DNA from: Nitrospirota bacterium
GTDB taxonomy: Bacteria > Nitrospirota > Nitrospiria > 2-01-FULL-66-17
NCBI GenBank assembly: GCA_049325335.1
Contig: JBMOMC010000002.1
Location: forward strand, 320,001 to 384,000
Reading direction: 5' to 3'
DNA: 64,000 bases
The translations under genes and the position numbers were made by a program. This document shows positions 54,063 through 64,000 of the stretch, piece by piece. How positions within the stretch are numbered: position 1 is the stretch's first letter; every line of letters starts with the position of its first letter. Under the pieces are notes generated by a model, which was given only the letters and a program-made list of their open reading frames with translations, was not told where the DNA came from and made no database searches.

Positions 54063-54086
54063 GGGCGCCCGGCCGGTCGACCTTAC
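54059..54086. repeat. GTAG-type REP-like palindrome, copy 3 (degenerate)
   Basis: GTAGGGGCGCCCGGCCGGTCGACCTTAC spans both convergent stop codons. Confidence 0.55.
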
Positions 54087-55273
54087 GGGGTGATCTTCAG
54101 GATCTCGCCCGCGTAGTCCACCACGTACAATTCCCGTTGCTCGTCCTCGCCAAACGCGGAAATCCGGTGGTCGGTGTCGAGGAGTTTTTGCTGTTCGATC
54201 ACGGTCGCGCCGTCATAGTGTAACGCCCAGATGCGACCCGTTCCGAAGTCGCCGTAGACATAGGCGCCGCAGAGTGCGGGGATGGCGCTCCCGCGGTACA
54301 CGCGGCCGCCGATCACGGTCGTGCCGTCCGATCGGGGGTAGTCGAAGATCGGAAGATCGAATCCTGACTTTTTGCACTTCGGATTCACACCCGGCGTGCA
54401 AATGGCCCCCTCCATCACGTTCCACCCGTAGTTGCCGCCCTTGCGGATCACGTCGATCTCTTCACGCGCGTTCTGGCCCACATCTCCGGCAAAGAGCCGG
54501 CCCGTGGCCGGATCGAACGCGAACCGCCAGGGGTTGCGCAGACCGTACGCCCAGATTTCCGGCGCCGCGCCTTTTCGCTTCACGAATGGATTGTCCGCTG
54601 GAATCCCGTAGGCCGTGGCGTCTCCGCCGTGGTCCACGTCGATGCGAAGGATCTTGCCGAGCAAGGTGGAGAGTTTTTGTCCATTACCGAGCGGGTCGTT
54701 CCCGGATCCGCCGTCTCCCAAGGCGATGTACAACATGCCGTCCGGGCCGAAGGCGACGTCTCCGCCGTTGTGGTTGGCGTAGGGCTGGGGGATCGTCATC
54801 AGGATCCGTTCGATGCGGGGATCGACTTCATCCGGTTTCGCGCCGACCTTGAATTCCGAGATTACGGTGTGCAGGCCGCCCTTGCGCGACGTGTAGTTGA
54901 CGTACAGTCGGCCGGTCTCAACAAAGTTTGGGTGGAACGCGAGCCCCAGGAGTCCCAGCTCGCCGCCCGACGTGACGCGATCGCGAATATCCAAAAACGT
55001 TTTCGATCCGGCCTGGCCCGGCTTGCGAACCTGAATCGTCCCCCGTTGCTCGACGATGAAGACGCGGCCTGTCCCGTCCCCGGCGGATTGGAAACCGACC
55101 GGCGATTTGAATCCGCTCAACGCGGGTGCGAGCCGGACCTCGGGAAACGACGGCGCGGGGTCCGGGGTGGAACAGAATAGCGCGGCGTGGGCCGGAGCCC
55201 ATGCCGTCATCAAGAACGCGATTAACGGAAGGCCGAAGCGGGTGGCCAGGCCGTGGCGGGTTGTGCGAGACAT
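54083..55273 (-). CDS. PQQ-dependent sugar dehydrogenase (GSDH family beta-propeller)
   Basis: Signal peptide, GLLGLAFHP, NHNGG, GDGG, YGLRNPWR, DVGQ. Confidence 0.9.
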   Translation of the reverse strand: MSRTTRHGLATRFGLPLIAFLMTAWAPAHAALFCSTPDPAPSFPEVRLAPALSGFKSPVGFQSAGDGTGRVFIVEQRGTIQVRKPGQAGSKTFLDIRDRVTSGGELGLLGLAFHPNFVETGRLYVNYTSRKGGLHTVISEFKVGAKPDEVDPRIERILMTIPQPYANHNGGDVAFGPDGMLYIALGDGGSGNDPLGNGQKLSTLLGKILRIDVDHGGDATAYGIPADNPFVKRKGAAPEIWAYGLRNPWRFAFDPATGRLFAGDVGQNAREEIDVIRKGGNYGWNVMEGAICTPGVNPKCKKSGFDLPIFDYPRSDGTTVIGGRVYRGSAIPALCGAYVYGDFGTGRIWALHYDGATVIEQQKLLDTDHRISAFGEDEQRELYVVDYAGEILKITP

Positions 55274-55477
55274 GGCGGTTCCTTTCAGGTCGAGTGATAC
55301 GGTGTTTTGTGCCGCCCATCATGGCAGAGTTTCGTGCAGAGGTCCAGTGGGGGGCCGGAACAAATGGCGTTCTGATGGGAACGGACGGGGTGTCGGTGGA
55401 GCCGGAAGCAGGTCCACGTCCGATGCCTGTGACACCGAGGAGAACTCCTGTGGTGAACTCGACGATTGCCCGGGAGA

Positions 55478-55514
55478 TTGCGTAAGATATCTGATCTGTG
55501 GTATCTTGATATCT
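55478..55514 (+). promoter_or_regulatory. vapBC promoter with overlapping operator-like repeat
   Basis: TTGCGT-18nt-TATCTT overlapped by two GATATC palindromes (55486-55491 and 55508-55513). Confidence 0.5.
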
Positions 55515-55533
55515 GTCTTTTGGAGGCAAGCAC

Positions 55534-55749
55534 ATGAAGACGTCCGTCGAGGTTGATGAAAAACTCTTGGGGCGGGTTAGGCGCCTTCTGGGGACCGAAA
55601 CCATTCGAGACACGATTCGCAAAAGCTTTGAGGCGGTGGTCCGACAGAAGGCGCTGGAGGAATCAGCGCGCCTCATGGGGACGATCGACGTGGACCTGAC
55701 TCCCGAGCAAATCCTAGCCCAGCGCCGCGCGCGTCGTGTACCTCATTGA
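55534..55749 (+). CDS. vapB: VapB antitoxin
   Basis: MKTSVEVDEKLL ribbon-helix-helix-like start. Overlaps the PIN gene. Confidence 0.85.
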   Translation: MKTSVEVDEKLLGRVRRLLGTETIRDTIRKSFEAVVRQKALEESARLMGTIDVDLTPEQILAQRRARRVPH

Positions 55750-56137
55750 CACCTCTGTGTGGGTCCATGTTCTTCGCCCGCACGGCGATTCCGCGACTCA
55801 AGAGCGCCTTCGGCCACTTCTCATCGGTGGTCAAACCGCGCTGATCGATTGGGTGATCCTTGAACTCATGACCGGTATTCGATCGCGGGAAGATGACGCA
55901 ACTCTCCGCACGTTTCTCGGACCTCTACCAAAACTTCCGGTGGATGAGCGCTGTTGGGAGGCGGCGTTCGACTTGGCCGTTGTGCTCAGAAGACGCGGCG
56001 TCACGCCCTCGGCCGCCGACTGCCTCATTGCGGCTTCCGCCATCAGACACCGCGTTCCCTTGATTCACATGGATGGGGATTTCACGGCGATTGCGCGCCA
56101 CAGCCGTCTCAAGGAATTGAGCTGGATCCGTGGATAG
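55736..56137 (+). CDS. vapC: VapC PIN-domain toxin
   Basis: LIDTSVW, ILEL, ADCLIAASA, DGDF acidic tetrad. Confidence 0.9.
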   Translation: MYLIDTSVWVHVLRPHGDSATQERLRPLLIGGQTALIDWVILELMTGIRSREDDATLRTFLGPLPKLPVDERCWEAAFDLAVVLRRRGVTPSAADCLIAASAIRHRVPLIHMDGDFTAIARHSRLKELSWIRG

Positions 56138-56156
56138 AGATACAGACGGGGCGGAT

Positions 56157-57233
56157 TTACTTGAACTTGGGCGGCGGAATCACCACCACCGGGTCGCTGC
56201 TTAAGGCGCGGATGAAGGCGAGTAGATCCATCTTGTCTTGTTCGGTGAGCAGATCGAGCGGCGTGATCAACGGATGGCGGTGGGCTGGGTGTCCTTCGGC
56301 TTTCACGTAAAAATCCAAGACCTCTTCCAGCGTGGCGAACATGCCGTTGTGCATGTAGGGCGCGCTGTCAGCCACTTGCCGCAGGGACGGGGTGCGGAAC
56401 GTTTCCATGTCGTCGTCATTGAGCGTGACCTTGAATCGGCCCGGGTCGTCCGGGACACCGTCGCGCTTTGGCAGGCCCAAGGCATGGAACTGGTTGTCGG
56501 TGAAATTGGGGCCGTTGTGGCACGTCACGCACTTGGCGCGCTCGTTGAAGATTCGCACGCCGCGTTTGGCTGACTCGGACAATGCCGCGTCATCGCCGGC
56601 CATGAAGCGATCCCACGGGGAGTTGTCCGAGAGAATGGTGCGTTCGAACGCGGTCAGGGCTTGGGCAATGCCGTCCGCGCTGGGGCCGGTGCCGAATACG
56701 GAACGAAACGCCTTCACGTAACCGGGGACCGCATTGAGTTCGGCGACCAGTTGGGAGAGATCCTGGTCCATCTCGATCGGATTTTGAATCGGCTCCAGCG
56801 CCTGTTGTTCGAGCGACGTGGCCCGTCCGTCCCAGAAGAACTGGGTGCGGTACGCGACGTTATAGAGCGACGGCACGTTCCGGGTCCCCAATTGTCCCTT
56901 GACGCCCTTGGCCACGGATTGGCCGTTGGAAAATCCAAGCGCCGGGACGTGGCATGAGGCGCAGGCCAAGGTGTTGTCTTTGGACAGACGCGGGTCGAAG
57001 AACAATGTCTTGCCTAGTTCGATTTTCGCCGGTGTCTGCAAGTTGAACGCCGGAGTCGGCGGCGCGAGCAACGGATACAGGTGGAACGGCGGGCTGGGCA
57101 ACGTGTCGAACAAGGTCTGCGGCGGGTAGGCGTCGGACTTCTTGGGCCGGGCCGCCTCAACGGGCGCGGACGCGAATGTCGCGGCGAGGGTCAGGAGGAA
57201 CAGGGTGATGAATAGTACGACGCGACGTGTCAT
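56157..57233 (-). CDS. Di-heme cytochrome c peroxidase/MauG-family protein
   Basis: Signal peptide, LFFDPRLS, CASCH, FWDGRA, CVTCH, PYMHNG. Confidence 0.9.
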   Translation of the reverse strand: MTRRVVLFITLFLLTLAATFASAPVEAARPKKSDAYPPQTLFDTLPSPPFHLYPLLAPPTPAFNLQTPAKIELGKTLFFDPRLSKDNTLACASCHVPALGFSNGQSVAKGVKGQLGTRNVPSLYNVAYRTQFFWDGRATSLEQQALEPIQNPIEMDQDLSQLVAELNAVPGYVKAFRSVFGTGPSADGIAQALTAFERTILSDNSPWDRFMAGDDAALSESAKRGVRIFNERAKCVTCHNGPNFTDNQFHALGLPKRDGVPDDPGRFKVTLNDDDMETFRTPSLRQVADSAPYMHNGMFATLEEVLDFYVKAEGHPAHRHPLITPLDLLTEQDKMDLLAFIRALSSDPVVVIPPPKFK

Positions 57234-57250
57234 GGTGGAAGATGGTCCGG

Positions 57251-58114
57251 CTAATAAATCAGGCGAGCGAGTTTTTCGCGGTACTCCTCCGCGAGTGGAC
57301 TTCTCATGCCGATCACTTCGAAAATTTGAAGCATCAGCTTGCGTGCCGCGTCGTCTTTGAAGTGCCGGTCTTTACCGAGAATCGCGACGTACGCGTCCAG
57401 CGCGTCGCGATAGCGCTGTGCCGCCGCGTACTGGGCGGCCAGTTCGAATCGCGTGTCCAGATCGCCGGGATTCTCGTTGACGGCAGCCTCCAGATCTGCG
57501 ATCGACGGCGCTCCCGCGTTGACTGCCGCCATGTCCATCCTGGCTTTGAGCGCGGTGACCTCGTCCTGCACCTGCACCTGACCCGGTAAACGATCATACG
57601 CGGTCCGGGCCTCGTCCCAGCGCGCCAGGAGCACCAACATCCGGAGTTCGCCGAGTCCGGCGCCGGCGTGTTTTGGGTCCTGGCCCAGGGCATCGCGGTA
57701 CGCGGCCAAGGCGTCGTCCCATCGCTGTTCGCGCTCGAACGTTGCGCCCTGGTCCACCAATTCATCGGCTTTGGTCGGGATCAATCGTTGGAGGAAGGCT
57801 TTGATGGCGGGCTCGGGAAGCGCGCCCACGAACTCGTTGACCACCTTGCCCTTGAAAAAGGCCTTCACATTGGGAATGGTCTGAATCCGGTACCGCTGCG
57901 CCAAGTTCAGATTGCGGTCGGTGTCCACCTTGGCCATGACGACTTTGCCCTGGAAGTCCTCCACCGCGTCTTCGAGGACCGGCCCCAGATACCGGCACGG
58001 CCCGCACCACTCCGCCCAAAAATCCACCACCACGGGGACCGTGTGCGAGCGTGCGATCACCCGCTCCTCAAACGTGGCCTCGTCCGCGTTAAACACCCAT
58101 TCATCATCGGTCAT
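57251..58114 (-). CDS. cnoX: Thioredoxin-TPR chaperedoxin CnoX/YbbN
   Basis: VDFWAEWCGPC followed by TPRs, C-terminal YREKLARLIY. Confidence 0.88.
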   Translation of the reverse strand: MTDDEWVFNADEATFEERVIARSHTVPVVVDFWAEWCGPCRYLGPVLEDAVEDFQGKVVMAKVDTDRNLNLAQRYRIQTIPNVKAFFKGKVVNEFVGALPEPAIKAFLQRLIPTKADELVDQGATFEREQRWDDALAAYRDALGQDPKHAGAGLGELRMLVLLARWDEARTAYDRLPGQVQVQDEVTALKARMDMAAVNAGAPSIADLEAAVNENPGDLDTRFELAAQYAAAQRYRDALDAYVAILGKDRHFKDDAARKLMLQIFEVIGMRSPLAEEYREKLARLIY

Positions 58115-58190
58115 AAGGCCAGCAGTCTAATTCAGTCGTTCGATCGGTAGCAAGGGAGATTTTTGATCTGGTCTGTGATCCCCGCGAAGC

Positions 58191-58361
58191 GGAGCCTGTT
58201 GAGGAACGCGTCAGACGCCCCCTTCGGGGACTTCCGGCATTTGAATTCTTGGCGGTGGGTCGCAAGGCGGAGCGAGCGCCCGCACCGCAGCGTACTGGGT
58301 CGTACGTGAGAAGCGGACGCGCAGGGACAACGCTGCGTATGACCGTTCATCGACAGGCTCC
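58191..58361 (-). repeat. Structured MITE-like repeat, copy C
   Basis: Minus strand GGAGCCTGTC...AACAGGCTCC. Identical 23-nt core at 58288-58310. Confidence 0.8.
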
Positions 58362-60724
58362 TACAGCGAGGTGCGGCGGAGGCGGAGGGAGTTGGCAATG
58401 ACCGACACCGAGCTAAAACTCATCGCCGCGCTGGCCCAAATCGGACTGATCAGCGGCCCCCCGAACGGCACCAGCAGCCCGGCCGCCACCGGCACGCCGA
58501 TCGCGTTGTACACGAACGCGAAGAACAGGTTCTGCCGGATCGTACGCATGGTGGCGCGGCTCAAGCCGCGCGCCCGTGCGATCGCGCGTAGGTCGCCTTT
58601 GACCAAGGTGACGCCCGCGCTCTGCATAGCCACGTCCGTGCCCGCGCCCATGGCGATGCCCACGTGCGCTTGGGCCAACGCGGGCGCGTCGTTGATCCCG
58701 TCACCGGCCATGGCTACGATCCGTCCCTCGGCCTGCAACGCTTGAACGATCTCGCGCTTTTGCGCTGGGAGGACTTCCGCGCGCACATCGTCGAGGCCGA
58801 GGGTCGATGCTACGGCCTGCGCGGTGACGCGCGAATCGCCGGTGACCATCACCACGCGCAGTCCGGCGCGGTGCAGGAGCGCAATGGCTTCGGGCGTGGA
58901 CGGTTTGACGGGGTCGGTCACGGACAACAGGCCCGCGGGCCGGCCGTTCATGGCGAGCCACACCACGGTGGCGCCTTTGCGGCGGTGCTCATCGGCCCGG
59001 ACCGCCAGATCGCCGAGCGCGACGCCTTGCCCGTCGAGAAAGGTTTGCGTGCCGAGCGACACGCGCGCGCCGTCGACCACGCCGCTTACGCCTTGGCCAG
59101 TGACGGAGTGAAACTCCTGCGTGTCCGAGAGTCCGAGCTGGCGGGCCTTGGACGCGGCGACGATGGCGGCCGCGAGTGGGTGTTCGCTGGCGCGTTCCAA
59201 GCTCGCGGCCACGCGCAGGATCTGATCGCCGGTAAACCCCGGCGCGGCCTCGATGCCGGTGAGCGCGGGCTTGCCCTCGGTCAATGTGCCGGTCTTGTCC
59301 ACCACCAGCGTGTCCACGCGTTCGAGAATCTCCAACGCCTCCGCGTTCTTGATCAACACGCCGGTCTCCGCGCCGCGGCCCACGCCCACCATCACGGCCA
59401 TGGGCGTGGCCAGGCCGAGCGCGCATGGGCACGCGATGATCAACACGGCCACGGCATTGACCAAGGCCAGAGCCAAGCGGGGTTCCGGGCCCCAGAGCCA
59501 CCAGCCAATGAACGCGAGCGCGCTGACGGCCATCACCAGGGGGACAAAGTAGCCGGACACGGTGTCGGCCACGTGTTGGATCGGCGCGCGGCTGCGCTGC
59601 GCGTCGCTCACCATGCGGACGATCTGGGCCAACAACGTGTCGGCTCCCACGCGGTGTGCTTTCATGATCACGGAGCCGGTGCCGTTGATGGTCCCGCCGA
59701 CCACGGCCGAACCCGCGGTCTTCTCGACCGGGATGGGCTCGCCGGTAATCATCGACTCATCGACCGACGTGCGGCCCTCGACCACCACGCCGTCCACCGG
59801 GACTTTTTCACCGGGCCTGACCCGTAAGACGTCGTCGCGCTGCACCCGTTCGATCGGGACATCTTCTTCGCGGCCGTCGCGTATCAGGCGCGCGGTTTTG
59901 GGGGCAAGGCCCAGGAGCGCGCGGATCGCGGCGCCGGTGCGGCCGCGCGCGCGAAGCTCCAGCACTTGGCCCAGCAGCACCAGGACGGTGATCACCACCG
60001 CACTGTCGAAGTACGGCTCCACCGCGCCGTGCACGCGAAAGCCTTCCGGGAACAGGCCGGGCGCGATCGTGGCTGCCGCGCTGTAACCGTACGCCGCGCC
60101 CACGCCCACCGCGATCAATGTGAACATGTTGAAATTGCGGCTCACCAACGAGGCCCAGCCGCGCTCGAAAAACGGTTTCCCGGACCAGAGCACCACCGGC
60201 GTGGCCAGGAGCAACTGGAACCAGCTCGAGACGCCCATGGGGACGGCGTGGCGCAGGGTTCCGCCGACCAACATATCGGCCATGGCCAGGGCAAATACCG
60301 GGAATCCGACGATTAAGCCGACCCAGAATCTGCGGGTCATGTCGAGCAACTCGGGATTCGGTCCTTCTGTGATCTGTACGGTGCGGGGCTCCAGCGCCAT
60401 GCCGCAGATCGGGCAGGGCCCCGGTTTATCGCTCAGCACCTCGGGGTCCATCGGGCAGATGTATTCGATCTTGGCGCCGGGCGGCGTAATCGGTGCCGGA
60501 GGAGGCTCCGGTCGTTTGACTGTGAGCGGCGCGCCGATCGTCACGAGTTGCGGCTTCCGTGGTGCGAGGTAGCGAGCCGGGTCGGCGGCGAATCGTTCCT
60601 GACAACTCGGGTTACAGAAATAGTAGGTCGTGCCGTCGTGGACGTGCGTACCACCCTTGGGATTGGCGGTCGGTACGGTCATACCACAAATAGGATCAAT
60701 GGCGGTCTGGGAACGTTCAGCCAT
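58361..60724 (-). CDS. copA: Cu+/Ag+-translocating P1B-type ATPase with YHS domain
   Basis: YHS domain (DPICGM...YYFCNPSC), YICPM...CPICGM, TGE, CPCALG, DKTGT, SEHP, GDGIND, YN and MSFSS. Confidence 0.93.
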
Positions 60725-60850: not shown

Positions 60851-61052
60851 TGAGACTCCAACGACACGCTGGTTGTTTCAACTGAGGAGCCGCATGGGCT
60901 CATCTCACGTTCCGGAGTATCGGATTCCTCGCGCGGAGGAACTATCCGCCACGCGAGCCCATCCGTGTCCGTCTTCAAATTTCTCGGTTCCTTCCGCGAC
61001 GCGTGTTACGGTCAAAAATTTTCCTTCCCACGATTCAACTCAGAGGGCGACG

Positions 61053-64000
61053 ATGAAATCACAATGGTGGTGGCGCGCAGCATTGGTCGGGTTGGTGTTG
61101 GTTGTGTTGGGAACAGGCGCGTCAATGCTCGCGCCGTCGGCAGCGCAGGCCGCCTCGTGTGCCGGCGCCACGGCGCCGTGCGCGGAAGACCCCGCGCTCG
61201 ACGCCTGCAATCAGTGCCATAGTATGACGATGACAACCGGGAACCGTAATGGCACCGACCGCCCCATCACGCTCAGCAACGGGTCTGATCGCCACATTTT
61301 AGGGCCGCGGGAACCCGATTTCACGGCGACCGTGGCCGGGATGTTGTCAAAGGGCGCCGCCGGCATCGCGGCACGGATCACCGCGTACCTGAACACAAAT
61401 TATTGCACGACCTGCACCGGGCCGATCCTTTCGAGCGCGTCGTTGTCCAATATCGTGTCGAATGGGGTGACGATAAGCTGGACGACCTCGGCGAATGATT
61501 TTGCCGACTCGATGGCCACGAGCTGCGTCTTGTACGGCACGTCGACGTCGTCGCTCACCGGTAATACGTGCGATACAGGCGACCCCAACTATGATCCGAA
61601 CAGCGCGACGCTGGTCGCCAGCCATCAAGTGACGTTGACGGGGCTGGACTCGTTGACTGAGTATTTTGTCGTGCACCAATCCACCTCGGGCGCACAGACC
61701 ACCAGCTATTCCTTGGCCTCGTCGTTTACCACCCCGCCGCCTGATGGTGGCGGTGGAGGAGACGGCGCCCTGGGGACCATCATTTCGCTCGCGGTTGGGA
61801 ATTATGACGCCGGGACTACGTTGGACTTGGGCATTGGTGTGAGCAGTAAGAATCATGTGATCGCGTACCTCGGCGTCGGGAACGGAACGTTCACCGAAGG
61901 TCAGACGCTGGCGAACGTCGGGACAACCCCGGCGGGAATTACCACCGGCGGGGTGAAGGGCGATTTCAACGAGGACGGGTTGGACGACCTTGCGGTCGTG
62001 AATTTTGCGGACGGGTCCAAGGACGTCAAAGTGTTTCTGGGCACCACGCCGTCAGGCTTTGAAACGGTCGAGGTATCACGCAAGGCGTTTGTGGATCCAC
62101 CTACCAGCGTGGTGACCGGTGACTTTACCGGGGATGGGATATTGGATCTGGCCGTGGCGACGGTGCACACGCCCGCCCCGGCGATGGGTCATGTGTTGAT
62201 TCTGCCCGGCATTGGGGTGGGGGGGAGTGGAACCGGGAGTTTCGGAGACCCGATCTTTACGATCGACGTGCCGATTTCAGTCGGCTTTGCGCCGACCATC
62301 ACGTCGATTACCCCAGGATCGGTGGACTGTCTTGGATTACCGTCCGAGATCACGATTACAGGCAACCTCTTGCTGAATGGCTCGCCCGTGTATTTAGACG
62401 GGACAACTCCCTTGACCGTCATTTCGTACTCCGCGAACGCGTCGATTGTGGCGCGGATTCCAGCAGGAACCTCGGCCGGCACGCATCTGGTGACGGTCCA
62501 GGTCGGCGCTGCCGCGGCGACGGCTTCATTCAGCGTGACGCCCAGAGGCGTGAGTATTTTCAGCGTCACCCCCTCGTCCAAACTCTATGGAGTGGACCCG
62601 TCCGGCGAGGTCATCATTTCCGGGGACGGTTTCACGGTGGGCGGAACCGTGTCGATCGGTCCCTACACCGGGACCACCGTGGCGGGATTGAGTGCGTCCT
62701 CGTCCGTGCCCTTCGTCTTTGTCAACAGCACGACGATTCGAGTGTTCCTGCCCAGTACGCAATTCCCCGTGGGTCAATATAACGTCTATGTGCTCAACCA
62801 AGACGCATGTGGCGGCACCGTGACGTTAAACAACGGCTATACCGTCGCCGCTCCCCAGCCCACCATCAGCGACCTGTCAGACCCAAACGTAACGTATGGC
62901 GTGAGCACCAGCCGATCGATTCGGGTCAACGGCACGGGATTCGTCGTCGGCGCGCAACTGACCGTGGGCGGACTCTCCGGAACCGTGGTGCAAGGAACCC
63001 TTGCCACCGCCGCTCAGCCATTCGTCTTTATTTCGAGTTCAAGCCTGGCGTTTTATTGGGGGAATACCTCATTGCCCGTGGGATCATATGGCGTCACGGT
63101 GACGAATCCAACCGCGGCCGGTGGGTTAAGTACCACGCTGGCCGGCGGGTTCGTGGTCATGGCTCCACAACCGCAGGTATCCTCGGTGTCGATCAGTCCC
63201 GTCACTTACGGGGTGACGCCGAGTCTAGCCGTGATGATCGAGGGGTCCGACTTCCTCCCCGGAGCCGTGATCACGGTGTCAAACTTGACCGGCACTACGG
63301 TCCCGGGGTCGTCGGCCACTGCCGCGGTTCCATTCGTGTTCGTGAGCAGTAGCCGACTGAGTTTCTACTGGGCCAACACGTCGCTGGCTCCGGGAACCTA
63401 TCACGTCCGCGTGGACAATCCTTCGGCCGGTGGGGGGTTGTTCGGCATCCTGACCAATGGGTTTGTCGTGAGCGGCGCCGTGCCACAGTTGTCGTACCTT
63501 ACGCCGGATCCGGTCACCTATGGGGTCAGCGTCAGCTCGCAAGTCACGATTTTCGGATCGGATTTTGTGGTCGGGGCCACGATTACCGTGGGATCAATCA
63601 GCGGCCAGACCGTGAGTGGGACGACCGCAACGTCGTCGGTGCCGTTTGTCTTTGTGTCGAGTGGGGTTCTGAGGTTTTACTGGAACAACACATCGTTGCC
63701 GCCAGGCGCGTACACGGTACAGGTCACGAATCCATCGGCGGCGGGTGGGGGATCTTCCAGCTTGGTAGCCGGCTTTACGGTGATGGCTCCCCAGCCGCAG
63801 ATTATTAATCTCACTCCGGAATCAGTAACCCACTCGATTACCCCAGGAATGTCCATCTCCGTGTTCGGGAGTGACTTCATGGTGGGTTCGACCATTACGG
63901 TCGGAGCGTTGTCCGGAGTGACCGTGGCTGGAAGCGTGGCGACGGCCGCCACACCGTTTGTGTTTACCAGCAGCGGGATCGTGAGATTCTACTGGGCCAA
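61053..64000 (+). CDS. Large secreted protein with cytochrome c domain, FN3-like domain, FG-GAP repeats and tandem IPT/TIG-like repeats (3' partial)
   Basis: Hand translation is open from ATG 61053 to the window end (over 980 aa). Signal peptide MKSQWWWR...AAQA, CNQCH at 61206-61220, GDFNEDGLDDLAV, GDFTGDGILDLAV, repeated PFVF motif. Confidence 0.88.
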   Translation, partial: MKSQWWWRAALVGLVLVVLGTGASMLAPSAAQAASCAGATAPCAEDPALDACNQCHSMTMTTGNRNGTDRPITLSNGSDRHILGPREPDFTATVAGMLSKGAAGIAARITAYLNTNYCTTCTGPILSSASLSNIVSNGVTISWTTSANDFADSMATSCVLYGTSTSSLTGNTCDTGDPNYDPNSATLVASHQVTLTGLDSLTEYFVVHQSTSGAQTTSYSLASSFTTPPPDGGGGGDGALGTIISLAVGNYDAGTTLDLGIGVSSKNHVIAYLGVGNGTFTEGQTLANVGTTPAGITTGGVKGDFNEDGLDDLAVVNFADGSKDVKVFLGTTPSGFETVEVSRKAFVDPPTSVVTGDFTGDGILDLAVATVHTPAPAMGHVLILPGIGVGGSGTGSFGDPIFTIDVPISVGFAPTITSITPGSVDCLGLPSEITITGNLLLNGSPVYLDGTTPLTVISYSANASIVARIPAGTSAGTHLVTVQVGAAAATASFSVTPRGVSIFSVTPSSKLYGVDPSGEVIISGDGFTVGGTVSIGPYTGTTVAGLSASSSVPFVFVNSTTIRVFLPSTQFPVGQYNVYVLNQDACGGTVTLNNGYTVAAPQPTISDLSDPNVTYGVSTSRSIRVNGTGFVVGAQLTVGGLSGTVVQGTLATAAQPFVFISSSSLAFYWGNTSLPVGSYGVTVTNPTAAGGLSTTLAGGFVVMAPQPQVSSVSISPVTYGVTPSLAVMIEGSDFLPGAVITVSNLTGTTVPGSSATAAVPFVFVSSSRLSFYWANTSLAPGTYHVRVDNPSAGGGLFGILTNGFVVSGAVPQLSYLTPDPVTYGVSVSSQVTIFGSDFVVGATITVGSISGQTVSGTTATSSVPFVFVSSGVLRFYWNNTSLPPGAYTVQVTNPSAAGGGSSSLVAGFTVMAPQPQIINLTPESVTHSITPGMSISVFGSDFMVGSTITVGALSGVTVAGSVATAATPFVFTSSGIVRFYWA

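Follow-up and report, generated by a model that had tools for sequence, protein, structure and literature searches.

A conserved monohaem head, predicted to bind haem c, precedes interchangeable tails in large exported proteins of Nitrospirota

A 64,000-nucleotide stretch of a Nitrospirota bacterium genome (contig JBMOMC010000002.1, positions 320,001 to 384,000; hereafter the window) ends inside a gene whose product begins with a c-type haem motif and continues into adhesin-like repeats. Why should one exported protein combine the two, and where would its haem lie? The original prediction, made from the window sequence without database searches, envisaged a redox-active haem displayed at the outer end of a long stalk. 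Our analysis indicates that this haem-headed protein is real, conserved and, as far as searched, undescribed. Judged by its sequence, the haem-carrying head is a portable module that stays constant while the tail behind it is swapped. The matter bears on a wider one, namely how the early-branching Nitrospiria that do not nitrify obtain their energy.

The frame opens at ATG 61053 on the forward strand, is still open at the window end and stops at position 385042 of the same contig (C2 of the source genome, G000). Extension of the gene on the genome contig gave a full-length protein (P0001) of 1,329 residues, in agreement with the expected frame of more than 980 residues running off the window end. 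The program-made track of open reading frames (ORFs) had missed the gene because such a frame is listed only if open-ended frames are allowed. The signal peptide is the sole strongly hydrophobic stretch of the protein (Kyte-Doolittle score 2.2; second best 1.5), and a promoter and terminator scan at the gene gave results at chance level. The features are given below in window positions unless stated otherwise.

61043..61047, + strand: ribosome-binding site GAGGG, read from the sequence, 5 bases ahead of the ATG; homologues start at the same MK
61053..64000, on to G000:C2:385042, + strand: gene for the haem-headed protein (ORF plus genome sequence)
61053..61151, + strand: Sec-type signal peptide, residues 1-33; cleavage between AQA and A judged by eye; no lipobox
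61152..61403, + strand: predicted monohaem c head domain, residues 34-117 (alignments, AlphaFold2 (AF2) model, SorB and PF09098 profile matches)
61206..61220, + strand: haem attachment motif CNQCH, residues 52-56 (45 of 45 heads)
61341..61343, + strand: Met97, predicted distal axial ligand, within FTATVAGMLSKG (45 of 45 heads; aligns with the SorB Met in the profile alignment)
61404..61415, + strand: CTTC pair (C118/C121), from the sequence; CxxC kept in most heads
61416..61736, + strand: FN3 domain with C158-C173 insert, residues 122-228 (fold and a weak Pfam match)
61737..61772, + strand: Pro/Gly linker, beyond which the tails of relatives diverge
61773..62282, + strand: three FG-GAP blades (partial beta-propeller), residues 241-410 (Pfam PF13517 and PF01839 above cut-off)
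62286..62852, + strand: repeats 1 and 2, divergent IPT/TIG domains with one conserved Cys each (sequence and fold)
62853..64000, + strand: repeats 3 to 6 of the 104-residue CoaZ/IPT array; repeats 6-9 end outside the window
G000:C2:385059-386423, next gene after the head gene: partner BNR/sortilin-type propeller gene with one C-terminal haem motif

Is the head conserved as a haem domain? A search with residues 30-235 returned 25 proteins, the named ones all from Nitrospirota or Nitrospiria. CxxCH was present in 23 of these, the other two being annotated with a start that lies past the motif. A head profile searched against 1.84 billion representatives gave 32 matches, namely 25 heads, five distant repeat proteins and two spurious hits. 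The last two (P0043 and P0055), which are without CxxCH, were dropped, and the distant multi-repeat PF09098-like proteins (P0050, P0051, P0053, P0054 and P0057) were excluded from the head counts. The heads with a whole domain numbered 45, with P0022, P0023, P0047 and P0049 left aside as truncated in the head, and in the alignment neither CxxCH nor the [WF]-x3-[VI]-x2-M methionine is missing from any of the 45. From the composition of P0001 one CxxCH would be expected 0.0006 times. The other head features are a C36-C43 pair, an invariant E45, a conserved beta-hairpin insertion and a YL (here AYLN) helix, and the protein contains Cys pairs at 36/43, 118/121, 158/173 and 426/586. Thus the Sec signal, CNQCH motif, distal Met, AYLN helix and additional Cys pairs originally pointed out are all present. 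The AF2 model of head plus FN3 (predicted local distance difference test 85.9, predicted template modelling score 0.84) has three helices and the hairpin insertion, with head and FN3 forming one rigid unit. The helices lie at the places expected for cytochrome c in the model, whose fold searches were filled by FN3/IPT hits, such that residues 1-90 were barely probed. From the conserved motifs we predict a single haem c in the head, ligated by His and Met. The CTTC pair was ruled out as a second haem site, as it has no His, and it likely forms a disulfide at the head/FN3 joint. Note that one head subgroup (L021:1573-4611, L022:7014-14190, P0031, P0037, P0038, P0040-42, P0045, P0046, P0048 and P0052) has, in place of the C36-C43 pair, a His close to the N-terminus of the mature protein (x-H-T-x-x-G-A-[WF]-x-E), which could be a metal site or serve as an alternative ligand of the haem.

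What lies behind the head in P0001 is largely what had been proposed. The FN3-like domain was recovered by fold comparison (Z about 9), with a Pfam Pur_ac_phosph_N match under cut-off (E 2.7e-4). FG-GAP repeats scored above the Pfam cut-offs as expected, but there are only three blades in both the model and the family consensus and hence no complete propeller in one chain. This part has 12-15 strands in the model and aligned to portions of propellers (Z about 11); as modelled, it must probably oligomerise. The Ig-like stalk is an array of nine repeats (residues 412-1329; NCBIfam CoaZ_rpt_PGGG E 3.7e-43), the first of which has an IPT/TIG fold in fold comparison of the model (Z 12.9-13.1). The CoaZ/IPT repeats are 47-59% identical to one another, charged residues make up 4.5% of the array, and the final residue of the protein is the end of a repeat.

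Other proteins carry the same head on different tails. At least five tail types were found, mostly with FN3 retained. The FG-GAP plus CoaZ type is that of the genus of the source genome and of G269, and the others include two YncE-type propellers, YncE with up to nine CARDB domains, LamG, and FN3 with BNR or TolB-type propellers and MopE repeats. The two-propeller tails (P0024 and P0035) lack any stalk. Among 20 FG-GAP-type proteins, a set retrieved by the head region, mean identity was 70% in the head vs 54-60% in the repeats. In one organism five head genes are arranged as tandem arrays (L036-L038, L060), and a head tree of 78 columns, with resolution too weak to order events, needed five changes for four tail groups. 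Two head genes of G008 (L022:7014-14190), each encoding 1,067 residues, have identical heads and tail ends and differing middles, a pattern that suggests duplication with tail diversification.

These tails bear directly on the tip-display geometry, in which the C-terminal repeats fasten the protein to the cell and the haem is presented at the far end for mineral or partner contact or for redox sensing. A tip domain followed by an Ig stalk is the usual order in adhesins, the CoaZ repeats are well supported, and repeats so apolar could self-associate or bind a surface scaffold. One candidate scaffold is a haem-free giant protein of the source genome (G000:C43:180644-187634; gene broken by an assembly gap at 181752-181851). 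However, in that protein the same CoaZ repeats are N-terminal, followed by IPT and FN3, and in the head proteins it is the head that is constant, the tails being unconserved and in P0024 and P0035 stalkless. No second hydrophobic or transmembrane helix was found in P0001, nor a barrel, a lipobox or an NCBIfam sorting signal, and a scan of the C-terminal ends of 13 other head proteins or controls likewise gave no anchor or sorting signal. Ig-like domains are about 4 nm each and electron tunnelling reaches about 2 nm, so a haem at the end of nine haem-free domains, about 35 nm away, cannot act as a wire. Sensing would call for an output, and neither a signalling output domain nor an adjoining sensor gene was seen. 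We give display of the haem at the tip only a small chance of being correct.

What, then, adjoins the head gene? Extension of the contig had been expected to reveal an anchor together with porin and multihaem cytochrome genes. No anchor was found and no porin or multihaem gene adjoins; the next gene is instead the BNR propeller gene with a monohaem motif listed above. Such a partner gene lies directly downstream in 7/7 of the FG-GAP/IPT-type loci that have downstream DNA. The C-terminal haem domain of the partner is homologous to the head (hhalign 93.9%), and the distal Met is invariant in all three haem-domain subtypes. Four further monohaem propeller genes are found in the source genome at C7:46.6-55.0 kb, and in G269, G313 and G008 monohaem propeller genes surround the head gene. 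We refer to these groups as propeller-monohaem cassettes. Signal peptides were present in all cassette proteins inspected and lipoboxes in several. In the second cassette of the source genome (G000:C7:28466-55024; L026, L027) one of the four monohaem propeller genes is fused to an FGE-sulfatase-like domain, and two propeller lipoproteins are followed by two large multicopper oxidases (frames of 1,739 and 1,605 residues). Carboxypeptidase-regulatory-like genes accompany these oxidases, and G108, G171 and G231 have a similar order. An obligate link of the cassette to a large multicopper oxidase was rejected, because the synteny is at genus level only.

The nearest known relatives of the head emerged when it was pooled with its partners. 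A combined profile of head and partner haem domains matched SorB (2blf_B) over positions 5-70 of 71 (E 0.0068), the best full-length PDB match of that profile, and PF09098, the haem-binding family of the quinohaemoprotein amine dehydrogenase (QHNDH) alpha subunit, was matched by 9/24 members of the pooled set. With these class I cytochrome c domains the head shares CxxCH, a W-x3-V-x2-M helix and a YL terminal helix. It differs in the conserved beta-hairpin insertion of about 20 residues, the extra Cys pairs and the fusion to FN3 and large tails, and no neighbouring SorA-type gene or gene for a cysteine tryptophylquinone subunit was seen. On these alignments we read the head as a new subfamily among the His/Met monohaem domains of SorB type. 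In the Atlas the look-alikes of the head, with scores below 0.9, were CxxCH proteins of a generic kind and were kept as leads only.

The PF09098 matches raise the question of whether the cassette might be a multi-subunit periplasmic or surface enzyme like QHNDH or hydrazine synthase, the propellers carrying active sites and the monohaem domains removing electrons, possibly to neighbouring multicopper oxidases. The YncE-type tails weakly match the QH_beta and hydrazine_beta models, there is a weak QH_alpha match in the IPT part of P0016 (E 0.0014), invariant E45 and Arg/His residues would lie near the haem, and in genus g1 the second cassette is upstream of the multicopper oxidases of about 1,600-1,700 residues. 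However, all of these matches are far under cut-offs and there is one haem instead of two. The QHNDH alpha subunit itself (TIGR03908) was rejected on the latter ground, given the single CxxCH of the head protein vs a dihaem N-terminal domain; the full-length TIGR03908 model gave no match for P0001 and 17 bits for P0016 against a cut-off of 274. The annotated neighbours included no gamma-subunit or radical-SAM gene and, with no genome-wide family search made, no qhpC or qhpD maturation gene. The clusters of G269, G313 and G008 have no oxidase link, and G008 gave no hit with the oxidase model, though the same threshold also missed the source genome's own copies. Moreover, stalks of nine IPT or nine CARDB domains suit the outside better than the periplasm. 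We regard an enzyme of this kind as rather unlikely.

How might such a protein leave the cell? Four other organisms have a GspC-like gene in the head cluster (NF041515 E 1e-5 to 1e-16, under cut-off), at sites in G313, G008 and L040 and after each of three head arrays in the organism of L036/L037/L060. GspD scored above cut-off in 5/5 carrier genomes tested, and the Sec signal on the head protein and a type II secretion system (T2SS) in the genome are both present. MtrC and OmcA of Shewanella are reported to be exported by the T2SS (PMC3279761), and in Vibrio an Ig fold is reported to be the feature by which the PDZ domain of GspC picks out a subset of the cargo (PMC12369372). By analogy with these precedents, the GspC-like neighbours in other organisms and the GspD of the carriers make T2SS export of the head protein likely. 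The cassette GspC-like proteins (L060:12301-13092, L036:5720-6643 and L040:2508-3296) have apparently cleavable or lipoprotein signals (LAAGC in that of L060) rather than the usual membrane anchor and, from these sequences, are possible soluble cargo adaptors. As for haem maturation, CcmF-like and CcsA-like motifs are present in the source genome.

The link to secretion also fits a head that serves mainly as an export or assembly tag, or as a local redox buffer, for adhesins or matrix proteins, without respiratory electron transfer. A conserved head on unrelated tails, five head genes arrayed in one organism with a GspC-like gene after each of the three arrays, and the frequent position of cassettes beside surface-polysaccharide genes would all be expected of a tag, and cytochromes can carry cargo through the T2SS (PMC6929479). 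Against it, all three haem-domain subtypes have an invariant distal Met, the ligand that haems engaged in electron transfer retain, and the carriers are nested inside the genomes with a multihaem conduit. A head without a respiratory role is, in our judgement, improbable.

What kind of host carries the head? The carriers are uncultured and related to nitrifying bacteria. The proposed chemolithoautotroph holds as to autotrophy, with ATP-citrate lyase in 5/5 carrier genomes tested, and as to envelope electron-transfer genes, with a beta-barrel-like (porin-like) gene in the multihaem cluster of 5/5. In the source genome C1:236-247 kb encodes cytochromes with 5, 4 and 11 CxxCH motifs, an NHL protein and a beta-barrel-like gene. 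The window itself contains at 1452-2666 an open frame above cut-off for the ATP-citrate lyase citrate-binding family, a marker of the reductive tricarboxylic acid (rTCA) cycle. The results do not show the host to be an oxidiser of Mn, Fe or nitrite: narG/nxrA had no match in the source genome, and the largest family of the class, with 75 genomes, had no head. With narG/nxrA above cut-off in 1/5 carriers and dsrA in 0/5, nitrite oxidation and dissimilatory sulfite reduction were rejected as traits common to the carriers.

The explanation we prefer, to which we assign somewhat less than an even chance, is that the conserved haem head with its adhesin-like tail, secreted by the T2SS, forms together with the propeller-monohaem partners an outer electron-relay layer linked to the porin-multihaem conduit. 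The protein would be exported by Sec and receive its haem in the periplasm, and the folded protein would then be secreted by the T2SS with the GspC-like neighbour, where present, as cargo selector. The head would lie at the base, docked on cassette partners (some with lipoboxes) or on the conduit, because the part conserved across lineages should meet conserved partners. The variable tail would point outward and bind mineral, polymer or cell surfaces. Electrons would pass by one-electron hops between haems, in one direction or the other, and a tethered or released shuttle would be a variant of the same reading. A more elaborate version is appreciably less probable and, on balance, unlikely. 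In it a portable monohaem head on interchangeable surface-binding tails, exported by the T2SS with its own GspC-like cargo adaptor, and four to five propeller-monohaem proteins would make a modular haem network feeding the porin-multihaem conduit in non-nitrifying, rTCA-autotrophic Nitrospirota, the tail choosing mineral, polymer or partner cell.

The relay layer is favored by genome distribution, which also limits it. The head and propeller-haem profiles matched the same 8 of 401 Nitrospirota genomes (five families, two classes) and neither matched the other 393, and a large multihaem cytochrome was found in 28 of the 401 with all eight carriers among them. Several points weigh against the preferred explanation. 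The two profiles were built from genomes that they then matched, and in these counts kin are not independent. A rough estimate puts the chance of the nesting at 4e-4 across 44 families, but at 0.07 (family level) inside the class, where the nesting is weak. Twenty of the 28 multihaem-cytochrome genomes are without the head and cassette, so the system would be at most an accessory of the conduit. None of the head genes examined has a porin or multihaem gene as its neighbour, the conduit cluster of the source genome being elsewhere, and the head gene of L056 has no cassette within the locus DNA examined. The source genome lacks a dedicated GspC paralogue and has just the canonical gspC within its T2SS operon, and no GspC-like gene was seen near the head gene in G108, G171, G231, G269, L054, L056 or L065. 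As to the haem domain, the head alone gave no Pfam or NCBIfam match and no PDB cytochrome in single-sequence and head-only profile searches, the match to SorB, itself weak, was obtained with a pooled profile in which partner domains predominate, and P0001 has Phe where 44/45 heads have Trp.

Does the protein belong to a characterized system? It matched no characterized family, in line with the remark that the architecture was not recognised as characterized, and no paper describing the head protein or the cassette was found among the listings of the literature searched, whose coverage left subscription journals mostly outside. The closest analogue in manner of working is Cellvibrio Cbp2D and the Teredinibacter X183 proteins (PMC8981238; PMC10916295), which are described as large, secreted and modular, with a monohaem His/Met domain, an extra disulfide, FN3 and binding modules. 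Unlike these, P0001 and its relatives have no CBM2 or YceI/X158 module by Pfam and no X122, their haem domain is single and N-terminal and comes with the propeller-haem cassette, and the host is an autotroph rather than a cellulose degrader. The solved domains of Cbp2D/X183 were not among the PDB sequence matches listed, a search in which short domains can be missed.

Like Shewanella MtrC and OmcA (PMC3279761), the head protein would be a haem protein matured in the periplasm, exported folded and working with a porin-multihaem conduit, but it is monohaem, has no lipid anchor and is encoded away from the conduit, and its export is predicted. With FG-GAP/VCBS plus IPT or CoaZ-repeat surface proteins it shares FG-GAP and CoaZ repeats above cut-off and the IPT/TIG fold, whereas it has only three blades, no sorting signal and a haem head in front. 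In common with the porin-cytochrome complexes of Ca. Manganitrophaceae (PCC_1; PMC9040806), the carriers have a porin-like plus multihaem cluster, and the source genome also has the two large multicopper oxidases; the head protein is not a component of such a complex and is not encoded with porin or multihaem genes. The main text of that paper does not mention propeller or monohaem proteins, and its Table S6 gives BNR genes of strain Mn1 without sequences.

The marker set of haem head, propeller-haem cassette and GspC-like gene, being confined to multihaem-conduit genomes, offers concrete proteins to study, and the head, at 200 residues, is a small and readily produced target with a confident model. 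If it is the head that leads unrelated tails to T2SS export or to docking, it would represent a natural modular redox-adhesin design in which the units are monohaem instead of multihaem.

Several further genes were seen around these loci. Directly upstream of the head gene in G313 (L021:1253-1606) and G008 (L022:10316-10672) is a gene for an exported protein of 117-118 residues with no Pfam or NCBIfam family, and a different exported protein of 140 residues occupies that place in L036 and L056. In the window, on the strand opposite the head gene and upstream of it (54083-60724), are genes for a Cu-type P1B ATPase, a thioredoxin-TPR protein, a CCP/MauG di-haem protein and a GSDH-family propeller, which are not kept beside the head gene in three sister genomes. 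Elsewhere in the source genome a di-haem DHOR-like protein is fused to a BNR propeller (G000:C44:140007-142952; L032), and two tandem exported proteins of 1,100 residues, each with five CxxCH motifs and almost no family match (G000:C43:350783-357935; L043), are followed by a propeller-DUF3105 gene.

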